From NCBI RefSeq assembly GCF_033153115.1, contig NW_026889789.1, positions 2,728,001 through 2,792,000 of the forward strand: 64,000 bases of DNA. The letters are read 5' to 3'. The notes under the pieces were generated by a model. It searched no databases. It was not told the origin of the DNA and was given only the letters and a program-made list of their open reading frames with translations. This document shows positions 3,685-6,454 of the stretch, piece by piece. This DNA comes from Saccostrea echinata (taxonomy: Eukaryota). Positions within the stretch are counted from its first letter, which is position 1. Each line of letters opens with the position of its first letter. Position numbers and translations under genes: made by a program.

Positions 3685-4131
3685 TCTGTCCAAAACACCA
3701 GGTCCTTCCTTCTCCATATTGTCTTTGATCTGGGAAAGGGGGATGCGACAATACACGTACTGTTTAACGTCGTGATAATCTGAAAAGGTCAGTTCTTTTT
3801 TCTTCATCTTGAAAAAATGTCTCACACACTCTCCTATGTCGGAGTACCAGAGACTTTCGTTCAGAACCAGGGTCATCGGTGTCGAACGATTCATAGGATG
3901 AGTACAGCTGACCCATTTATATTGCTCGTAATGCTGGTTGAATTTCACCCTCACTCTAGTTCCTTAAGGATGCGGGATTTTGACTCTTTTTTCCAGCCAC
4001 ACGTCTTCCAGGGAATGTCCTGGATGATTTTCAAAGAAATCCAGGATCGCTCCTACTTTAGTTTTCATCCACCCTCCTTCCATGTAAATAAACCGAGTGA
4101 TGGGGCTCTCACAATACCAACGATACTGCAT
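3685..4131 (-). pseudogene. Accessory gene X2, paralog of 5880-6350; in-frame TAA at 3964-3966; 3' end in N gap
   Basis: Manual translation from ATG 4131 gives MQYRWYC...GGWMKTKVGAILDFFENHPGHSLEDVWLEKRVKIPHP*GTRVRVKFNQHYEQYKW..., which aligns along its length with the 5880-6350 product. Confidence 0.75.
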
Positions 4132-4274
4132 CTTTTTTAAAACACGTCTGACTTGGACAATGAACTTTTTCAGAATGAATGATTTTTTTGGGGGTCATAC
4201 CTCTTTATATAACCTTATCCAATCTATTTTTAGCATCTCAGGAAAAACCCAACAACAGTTTTTTTTTTTTGATT

Positions 4275-4727
4275 TTATGATTTATTTCCTTCATATCTAC
4301 ATAATGGACAAAGTCTGTAGCAAATCTTGACGAAGTTCTCGACACATTTCACACAGCATGGATACTGTCGGCATTGTTGGCACTTCCATCTCCCCTCCGT
4401 ATTTTCCTCCCAGCAGGTCAGACATTTCTTTAAGGCTCTCTTCCTGGTCACTTTGACCCATAGGGGCACCATATTCTCTGCCCCGTACTTCCATGTGAAA
4501 TATTTCACGCACCATCTACATCCACAGGTCTCCATGGAAGGGGGATCATCCACAAACCAGTGAGGAAAAGCCATTTCACAATGCTCGCAAAATTGATAAG
4601 TTCTGTGATGCCATCCTGGATGATCATACACCGTAAATGTACGCTCATGGATCATCTCCCTATCACAGTAATGACAGTAATACTTTTCTACCTCAAAGAA
4701 ATACTTCAGTCTCCACATAAAAATCAT
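4275..4727 (-). CDS. Cys-rich zinc-ribbon + RING-like protein (RING2), putative E3 ligase
   Basis: N-terminal CHYC...CEHC and CGCRWC. C-terminal CLTC-x10-CQQC-x4-CCVKC...CPLCR. Confidence 0.8.
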   Translation of the reverse strand: MIFMWRLKYFFEVEKYYCHYCDREMIHERTFTVYDHPGWHHRTYQFCEHCEMAFPHWFVDDPPSMETCGCRWCVKYFTWKYGAENMVPLWVKVTRKRALKKCLTCWEENTEGRWKCQQCRQYPCCVKCVENFVKICYRLCPLCRYEGNKS

Positions 4728-4774
4728 GATGAAATGTGGTGGTGGTGGTGGTGGTGAAAATTTTTTTTTTTCAC

Positions 4775-4896
4775 AAAAAAAAGCTCAGCTTTAAAAATAC
4801 CTTTGGATCTGACTATTTATAGTCGCTTTGTGAAATTTTTTTCCAAAAAAGCTCAGCTTTAAATACCTTTGGATCTGACTATTTATAGTCGCTTTG
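4775..4896. repeat. Two direct copies of a ~55-bp promoter unit upstream of RING2
   Basis: AAAAAAGCTCAGCTTTAAA(AA)TACCTTTGGATCTGACTATTTATAGTCGCTTTG at 4775-4830 and 4845-4896. Confidence 0.9.
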
Positions 4897-4933
4897 GAAA
4901 AACCCACACGTGCTTCACACGTTCTTACTCTAT

Positions 4934-5133
4934 TTAAGTCTATTGGTTTTTCCAAAGTCAAAAAATAATTTTTTTTAAGTCTATTGGTTTTTCCAAAGTC
5001 AAAAAATAATTTTTTTTAAGTCTATTGGTTTTTCCAAAGTCTAAAAATAGATTTTTTAAGTCTATTGGTTTTTCCAAAGTCAAAAAATAAATTTTTTAAG
5101 TCTATTGGTTTTTCCAAAGTCTAAAAATAGATT
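4934..5133. repeat. Five tandem copies of a 40-41 bp unit inside the Polinton
   Basis: TAAGTCTATTGGTTTTTCCAAAGTC(A/T)AAAAATA(A/G) starts near 4935, 4976, 5017, 5057 and 5097. Confidence 0.95.
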
Positions 5134-5283
5134 TAAAAAAAAAAAAAAAACCCTCAGGTTTTTTACCTAGGGCATAAACTTGGCACCGATTCAAGTCATC
5201 AAGCTGCCTATTGTGACGTCATCACATGTATTCAGCTGAGAAAAATAAGACCTGGTTTGGTTTTATAGTTTTTTTTATTATTA

Positions 5284-5733
5284 TTATTGTTCAAATCGAC
5301 ACAAGGGACAACTTCTGTAAGAAAGCCGTATAATGGACTTGTAACACTTTTCACAGCAGGGATATTTCATACACTGTTGACATTTCCATTTTCCTTGGGT
5401 GTTTTCTTCCCAGCAGGAGGGGCATCTCTCGATCTTGGTATTTCTTCTCATGCGCTTAGCCCAACGTGGCATCATAAAATCAACCCCATATTTCCACAGG
5501 TAATATTTCAGGCACCAATCACAGCGACAATACCACAAACTAGGGGGATCGTCTACTTCCCAGTGAGGTATACGTTCTCCACATTCATTACATCCCCAAT
5601 ACCAACCAATAAGGTCGTCGTCGTCACTGTCATACTCAGGTAATCTGCTGATCTCTCTCAACTGCCTATGGCAATGAGGACAGGCACTATTTTCTTGGTG
5701 AAGAAAATACGACATTCTCCACACAGAAGGCAT
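5284..5733 (-). CDS. Cys-rich zinc-ribbon + RING-like protein (RING1), paralog of RING2
   Basis: CPHC...CNEC, PHWEVDDPPS, CRCDWC, WKYG and CPSCWEENT.GKWKCQQC..YPCCEKC...CPLCR are all shared with RING2. The first ATG is at 5733 (the track start is GTG). Confidence 0.8.
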   Translation of the reverse strand: MPSVWRMSYFLHQENSACPHCHRQLREISRLPEYDSDDDDLIGWYWGCNECGERIPHWEVDDPPSLWYCRCDWCLKYYLWKYGVDFMMPRWAKRMRRNTKIERCPSCWEENTQGKWKCQQCMKYPCCEKCYKSIIRLSYRSCPLCRFEQ

Positions 5734-5879
5734 GATTGAAAAAAAAATGAGCACAGTGAACTCAAAGCTAAGATTTATATATATACCTTGGGATATCTAT
5801 TTTTAGTCGAAGCGGAAAAACCAACAACACCAGAATTTTTTTTTTCTTAGGTTTTTAATTCACAACAACAACAACAACA

Positions 5880-6350
5880 TTAAATTAACAAACATGGAAT
5901 ACTTTTGCATAGTTCTTTTTGAATAGGAAAAGTTCTCCTCATGTACAAATATTCTGTTTCACAAGCACAGTCCATGATGTCGTATCCTTCTCTGAGCACT
6001 TTGTTTACATAATCTTTGATACAATCTCGAACTTCTTCCATCCATTTTCCTTGAATCCAGGTCCTTGCTGGTGCCTCTGTTTTGTGAGCCAAAACGTATT
6101 TGACTTTCCATTTGAATTCCTGATACTGGGGTCGCCATGACCCTAATAATAATACTATGAGTGGTGCACATTCATGGTCCGGTAATTTGAATCTCTTATA
6201 CAGGTACACATCATTGAGTCCTGTTTCTCCCGGATTCTTATCCATGAAATCTTGGATGCATTCCTCTTTGTTTTTCATCCATTCTCCTTTTTTAGTGGAA
6301 CCTGTAGGCTCTTGCATTTTCCAACGATACTCGGAGCTTAAAAATTCCAT
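5880..6350 (-). CDS. Accessory gene X1, unknown function, internal two-fold repeat
   Basis: Intact 156-aa ORF with an upstream TATA. The motif YRW...GEWM....CIQDF recurs as FKW...GKWM....CIKDY. Confidence 0.8.
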   Translation of the reverse strand: MEFLSSEYRWKMQEPTGSTKKGEWMKNKEECIQDFMDKNPGETGLNDVYLYKRFKLPDHECAPLIVLLLGSWRPQYQEFKWKVKYVLAHKTEAPARTWIQGKWMEEVRDCIKDYVNKVLREGYDIMDCACETEYLYMRRTFPIQKELCKSIPCLLI

Positions 6351-6454
6351 GTTGTGCTCTGTCCTCAGTCAGATCAGAAATGAAAAAAATCTTTGTTGTT
6401 TTCCCATTTTATATATATACTCTGTGGTGTATCTATTTTTTTTTAAAAAAGACA

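Follow-up and report, generated by a model that had tools for sequence, protein, structure and literature searches.

The four genes lying between the integrase and the presumed penton gene of a Saccostrea echinata Polinton probably show one configuration of an accessory-gene slot of variable content in an element with many copies. A second zinc-finger gene likely recombined into this slot, whose products would act as host-modulating early proteins. The window analysed is a stretch of 64,000 nucleotides (contig NW_026889789.1, positions 2,728,001 to 2,792,000), and the slot holds two members each of two families, here called X and R, in the order X1-R1-R2-X2 (Table 1). The cassette is a genuine and apparently undescribed accessory region with two apparently unnamed families, as the literature searched at title and abstract level contained no description of X or R families or of a variable slot in bivalve Polintons. 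Maverick cargo genes are reportedly the topic of an earlier study. Module mosaicism is treated in the available text of bioRxiv 10.64898/2026.10.13.758929.

The host Polinton and its accessory-gene slot

The Polinton occupies the left 15.7 kb of the window, where all its genes are on the minus strand, and its hallmarks were found by Pfam (DNA_pol_B_2, E 3e-57; rve, E 6e-11, with Chromo; Pox_A32, E 4e-6). Its terminal inverted repeats (87 nt, 94%) match the end near 15670 with L206:3095, placing the other repeat about 6.4 kb left of the window and giving an element of about 22 kb, which fits the 15-25 kb range of Polintons. The gene order is PolB, a BIR-RING IAP (10746-11288, by Pfam), ATPase, three unnamed ORFs, integrase, an 88-aa ORF and the cassette, beyond which come the presumed penton, a basic ORF and the presumed major capsid gene. 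The presumed major and minor capsid and protease ORFs fit in size and place and had no match in the Pfam search; their names are presumptive, given from position and motifs. The presumed penton, also without a Pfam match, takes its name from the earlier note and its position.

Table 1. Features of the accessory-gene slot and its flanks, in window coordinates
Feature	Position	Strand	Description
Presumed penton / minor capsid gene	2515-3498	-	downstream flank
X2	3685-4131	-	X1 paralog, ATG 4131; in-frame TAA at 3964-3966, after codon 55
Predicted X2 promoter	4204-4249	-	GGTTTTTCC, 7 nt, CTAAAAATAG, TATA run
R2	4275-4727	-	150 aa; R1 paralog; only R gene in B and C
Predicted R2 promoter	4794-4904	-	duplicated, 66-bp period: CTATAAATAG then TATA-like run; GGTTTTTCC before distal unit
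Array, 41 bp x 5	4933-5134	+	GGTTTTTCC in each unit; CTAAAAATAG also in two units
TGACGTCA	5214-5221		presumed CRE-type palindrome; in block upstream of R2 in A, B and C
R1	5284-5733	-	149 aa; N-terminal CxxC..CxxC ribbon, CxCxxC linker, C-terminal eight-cysteine finger
Predicted R1 promoter	5776-5822	-	GGTTTTTCC, 7 nt, CTAAAAATAG, 11 nt, TATA run
X1	5880-6350	-	156 aa; two ~65-aa beta-beta-alpha-beta repeats; orphan family
88-aa hydrophobic ORF	6455-6721	-	overlaps integrase end; constant upstream border of slot
Integrase with chromodomain	6691-7782	-	Pfam rve + Chromo; upstream flank of slot

The two paralog pairs described in the earlier note are real. R1 and R2 share 45% identity across 152 columns (E 3e-47) and X1 and X2 25% across 134 columns (E 1e-11), the shared motifs it listed are present, and R1, R2 and X1 are open minus-strand frames between the integrase and the presumed penton. 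The proposed X2 gene is indeed an X1 paralog starting where it was placed, and an X2 query recovers X1 loci across the genome, but the premature stop, which explains why the ORF track skips the gene, had been overlooked, as had the repeat within X and the promoter elements of the array. Among the matches listed from the same genome, 43 of the 45 full-length close X2 matches have no internal stop, so that the lesion is local to the window copy, whose 3' end is unreadable in the window; siblings with an open frame encode about 160-166 aa with an acidic tail at the end. Besides the four genes of the cassette, the 88-aa ORF (dN/dS 0.09-0.24 between subfamilies) is a fifth in the same interval.

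The searches of the same genome, which scored the best 150 of 294-363 candidates and gave 150-152 rows each, showed that the element has well over 100 relatives there. We took 80 loci, selected by match class, and therefore the layout counts are not frequencies. In subfamily A the slot reads X1-R1-R2-X2 in 20/20 loci. Among 20 loci selected for X1 at 87-90%, subfamily B has X1-R2-X2' in 18, the other two being one locus without R and one concatenated locus, X1-R1-X1'-R2-R3-X2 (L130). Selection for a more distant X1 gave subfamily C, X1'-R2 with no X2, in 16 of 20 loci; the remaining four are L147 (X1-R3-X2), L150 (X1-R3), one degraded copy of the four-gene form, and a remnant. Subfamily D carries X2'' alone between integrase and penton in all six loci selected for distant X2. 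The remaining 14 of the 80 loci are fragments or degraded copies, including two in which R2 is the sole Polinton gene within 8 kb. This gain and loss of genes across subfamilies bears out the earlier view of them as non-core accessory genes, and that note was also right in denying a tandem duplication of an X-R unit. The mirror order to which it gave meaning is, on the other hand, only one of at least four arrangements and the least informative part of the slot; the four layouts indicate that the mirror is likely an X1-R-X2 block to which an additional R gene, of an older lineage, was joined.

Trees built from each half of R gave three lineages, R1, R2 and R3, the last being the single R gene of L147 and L150. 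R1 was found only in the four-gene subfamily and in hybrid or degraded loci, and its search of the genome gave 53 rows at at least 80% among the best 150 matches. Since R1-type and R2-type proteins are found also outside this genome, the R1/R2 split is older than the split between A and B. At integrase, X1, R2 and penton A and B behave as sister subfamilies, with dS of 0.20, 0.16, 0.27 and 0.12, respectively, against 0.98 at X2, which argues that single genes are exchanged between subfamilies. The TGACGTCA block is kept upstream of R2 in 19/20 A, 18/18 B and 16/16 C spacers, and the R1 leader resembles the R2 leader of B and C (z 7-10 relative to shuffles), which would follow from the insertion of an R1 unit. 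The simplest reading is likely the insertion of a promoter and R1 unit of about 600 bp into X1-R2-X2; that R1 was gained in A rather than lost in B and C is likely on parsimony in a recombining element. We thus envisage that a second zinc-finger gene, long diverged and bringing its own promoter, would have recombined into an X1-R-X2 block, each gene presumably forming its own RNA polymerase II unit with a MEF2-like box and TATA, so that single units could be swapped.

Promoter-like motifs and the repeat array

A composite element of GGTTTTTCC, 7 nt, CTAWAAATAG and a TATA run lies ahead of R1, R2 and X2. Among A copies it was found at R1 in 20/20, at X2 in 19/20, at R2 in 3/20 and at X1 in 0/20, and outside A at X2 in 1/19 B copies and in none of the C or D copies. 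Apart from GGTTTTTCC in that single B copy, the GGTTTTTCC sites and the array are confined to subfamily A. The window contains 5 composite sites, compared with 0.00 in 100 shuffles; as duplication links the promoters to one another, these counts are not independent. In the array GGTTTTTCC runs through five repeats in the direction opposite to that of the promoters. The strict MEF2-like box has a different distribution, being present at X2 of B (19/19), X1 of C (16/16) and X2 of D (6/6) and missing at X1 of A (0/20) and at R2 of B (0/18) and C (0/16), where R2 has a one-letter variant instead. Matches to the box also fall at the TATA site of the penton and capsid genes, and the signal may therefore be due in part to TATA.

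We take GGTTTTTCC to be kappaB-like, a label not confirmed in the literature searched, and TGACGTCA to be of CRE type. The MEF2 consensus is given as KCTAWWWWTAGM in the accessible part of PMC3807682, where MEF2 sites of Drosophila are described as cooperating with NF-kappaB sites at antimicrobial genes. The added GGTTTTTCC sites might put R1, R2 and X2 under Rel-family signalling, a tentative suggestion from motif content which we consider doubtful. A competing explanation, to which we give somewhat less than an even chance, is that the array is an ordinary unstable minisatellite and that the strings resembling kappaB, MEF2 and CRE sites arose as a side effect of duplication in AT-rich promoter DNA and are not inducible. 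Among the 20 A copies the R1-R2 spacer varies from 324 to 779 bp and holds 0-10 array sites with no fixed value, the 34 spacers of subfamilies B and C hold 0 and both subfamilies thrive without them, and YTAWWWWTAG alone is weakly enriched (28 against 15.7, reached in 1/100 shuffles), all of which would agree with such an origin. It sits less easily with the 7-nt spacing, constant at three promoters despite differing spacer letters, with the recurrence of the same 9-mer, as two GGAAAAACC sites beside one TGACGTCA, upstream of PolB (15508-15564, adjoining the terminal repeat), or with the fact that 10 of the 12 window matches fall inside the 15.7-kb element part. A bolder proposal would make these counter-defence genes tied to host immune signalling through Rel-, MEF2- and CRE-type sites, with the copy-number-variable array as an enhancer dial, a novel class of ZZ/RING hybrid ligases and a new-fold X switched on in defence, and the slot reshuffled among co-resident subfamilies as an arms-race accordion; as a whole we think it improbable.

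The R family and its zinc finger

The R family is without a name and its eight-cysteine finger stands between ZZ and RING. In 17 of the 18 finger-holding rows it follows C-x2-C-x10-C-x2-C-x4-C-C-x2-C-x11-C-x2-C-R, with eight zinc ligands in four pairs as in RING-like binuclear treble clefs. The text available from PMC4506424 places ZZ and RING in one binuclear treble-clef group and describes ZZ as a scaffold domain with the ligands CCCCCCHH, ending in a histidine pair. Ligands 1-6 of R keep the ZZ spacing in 17/18 rows and the C-terminal end is RING-like: the terminal histidine pair of ZZ occurs in 0/18 rows, with CxxCR in its place, and the canonical C3HC4 or C3H2C3 RING pattern in 0/20 rows of alignment A3. 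The R proteins gave no Pfam RING match at E 0.1, Pfam ZZ matched R2 at E 0.0055 (16.9 bits, below the cut-off of 21.4), and 10 of the 12 weak PDB sequence matches of the finger are ZZ-domain proteins (best E 0.12). In the atlas the finger has RING clusters as neighbours (0.83-0.87), among them zf-RING_4 clusters at 0.84-0.85, which we take as no more than a lead; the R model itself is poor (pLDDT 56.8) and fold searches gave no informative match. The name RING, given to both genes in the earlier note, is thus not earned by any test.

Known fingers were compared on both sides. With the all-cysteine C4C4 RINGs (CNOT4, Pfam zf-RING_4) R shares eight cysteines, a predicted helix, the x11 interval and the terminal CxxCR, whereas the middle spacing, x10-C-x2-C-x5, fits neither strict C4C4 nor canonical RING patterns and R has extra N-terminal zinc sites. 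With ZZ fingers (KCMF1, MIB1, p300, dystrobrevin) it shares the spacing of ligands 1-6 and a G-x-W/Y-K-C-x2-C-x2-Y segment, but not the histidine pair nor the acidic residues with which p62-type ZZ domains read N-termini. Because of the terminal CxxCR and the atlas neighbours we prefer a RING-like ubiquitin ligase or ligase adaptor as the most likely job of R, with middling confidence, and R would likely have a cross-braced RING-like finger.

An alternative, which appears unlikely, is that R is no ubiquitin ligase and serves instead as a scaffold of ZZ type or as an "Oncoid", binding Rb or chromatin proteins and so pushing the host cell to DNA synthesis. In its favour, besides the ZZ spacing and the Pfam and PDB matches above, LTCWE and paired CxxC occur together in ten R2-type rows, and these are two Oncoid motifs in the available text of PMC8502044. 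An Oncoid is there defined by LxCxE with a CK2 site and/or CR1, beside CxxC, usually upstream of PolB (PMC8502044); that definition is loose, so R2 is borderline. The cassette differs in its integrase-penton position, and LxCxE is present in R2 only: R1 and the two full-length homologs from outside lack it, and in R2 neither a downstream CK2 site nor a CR1 motif accompanies it. Moreover, the string overlaps a predicted zinc-ligand pair, its cysteine itself being a predicted ligand, and the CxxCR ending speaks against a ZZ domain.

More broadly, the cassette resembles adintovirus accessory genes in consisting of small genes outside the core set of an animal Polinton, with paired CxxC. The portions of PMC8502044 available to us report Oncoid, IAP (in some adintoviruses, and present here too), Bcl2 and Adintoc genes and give maps for Mytilus and Pinctada elements; six X/R motif strings did not occur in the first 4.0 million characters of its supplement text, a comparison by text under which a match to an Adintoc family may still exist. 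Zinc-finger "Ziftr" genes are described in some adintoviruses in the accessible part of bioRxiv 10.1101/2024.03.25.586562.

The X family, selection and host context

The X family is likewise without a name, and has a confident model with no clear structural counterpart. The X1 model reached pLDDT 79.6 and pTM 0.74, its two halves align to each other (hhalign probability 96.6, E 5e-10), and X had no match in Pfam, PHROG or PDB. An X relative is annotated in Saccostrea cucullata. Two database proteins, P0013 and P0026, fuse an IAP BIR domain to X pieces; one of them is a Saccostrea gene model, probably spliced across the element. A one-repeat X gene was found in 30 loci of distant Polintons of the same genome, next to a PP1c_bdg-type (GADD34-like) gene in 27/30 and a CARD/PC4 gene in 26/30. 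The block upstream of the integrase in these Polintons comprises one-repeat X, the PP1c-binding gene and a CARD-PC4-PC4 gene (for example L184:4892-7217, L189, L196, L200, plus 27 more). The GADD34/ICP34.5-like gene, of 70-85 aa with Pfam PP1c_bdg up to E 4e-8, is likely a translation-shutoff antagonist. In L211-L215 and L218 two separate one-repeat X genes lie about 800 bp apart, a possible model for the origin of the two-repeat gene.

The earlier note suggested X as a possible partner or adaptor of the RING proteins; that X is dedicated to the finger proteins in this way, with the mirror encoding two matched X-R pairs, we regard as quite improbable. X1 does lie directly ahead of an R gene in 54/54 R-bearing A-C loci, and in L147 and L150, so that a dedicated X1-R pair is possible, and an R2-type and an X2-type protein from an outside collection share a longest-contig value of 3923 and may come from one contig. 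As a general partner of R, however, X is not supported: X2 stands alone in 6/6 D loci, R2 of C lacks an accompanying X2, the one R of B is flanked by two X genes, one-repeat X had an R match in 0/30 loci within the 9-10 kb read per locus, and X2 was exchanged between A and B but R2 was not. We would rather regard X as a non-enzymatic binding protein, likely independent of R, whose two repeats in one chain would copy a homodimer of the one-repeat form. ERH is a small dimeric hub in silencing by small RNAs and heterochromatin, and X might blunt transposon silencing by mimicking it. We consider this very unlikely: the score is within background, there is no sequence support, and X is, in contrast to ERH, an internal two-repeat or one-repeat protein.

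By the Nei-Gojobori method on open natural copies, dN/dS between subfamilies was 0.31-0.46 for X1, 0.24-0.35 for R2 and 0.32-0.53 for X2, compared with 0.11-0.15 for integrase, ratios which indicate that X1, R2 and X2 are functional genes under purifying selection and faster-evolving than the core. R1 could be compared only within A (0.59 at dS 0.018, very little divergence). Although X2 is broken in the window copy and several copies have deletions or frameshifts, the idea that the cassette genes are decaying passengers without function can hardly be held, since it is largely refuted by this selection signal (less so for R1) and most close copies are open, with homologs outside the genome.

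The earlier suggestion of a host-interaction module survives in its context and not in its X-adaptor part. The IAP, a weak GADD34-like gene and the one-repeat X beside GADD34-like and CARD genes fit a putative role of the cassette products as host modulators, which would likely act early. The IAP is found in 5/5 A and 5/5 B loci, and in 0/5 C and 0/6 D loci. Left of the window the same element carries a weak PP1c_bdg gene (L206:4681-5190, E 3e-5, under cut-off), a weak RING-like ORF on the opposite strand (L206:6147-6851, E 0.03) and a zinc-knuckle ORF (L206:3588-4277, E 3e-12), and these far-end genes form a second accessory region. Adenovirus E3/E4 and the poxvirus "gene accordion" ends likewise hold lineage-variable host-modulating genes with paralog expansion and host-signal-responsive sites; we found no sequence relationship between them and the cassette, which differs in having an apparent short promoter per gene within an integrated multi-copy element. 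As the subfamilies differ in slot genes, IAP content and promoter sites within one genome, they offer a natural series of recent copies in which the question of Polintons and host defence is testable by expression data and reporter assays; it bears on whether animal Polintons act as viruses that need to handle host defences.

Some further observations were made on these elements. In L147:2491-3249 X1 runs in frame with the first half of the R3 gene (253 aa), the sole X-R fusion seen and probably a degraded copy. Natural deletion forms L166 and L129 (window joint 4141-6101) have lost the R genes, with X1 joined to X2 or to the X2 leader. Two penton types, 56-57% identical, sort with A/B and C/D, respectively, while the integrase is 90-95% identical, and the penton is unusually variable inside subfamily A (dN/dS 0.59). 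At L196:4931-5492 a distant Polinton in opposite direction interrupts or abuts a subfamily-B element. Outside the element, the window contains host tandem repeats of 165 bp (58359-59152), 146 bp (37737-38024) and 22 bp (23136-23311).
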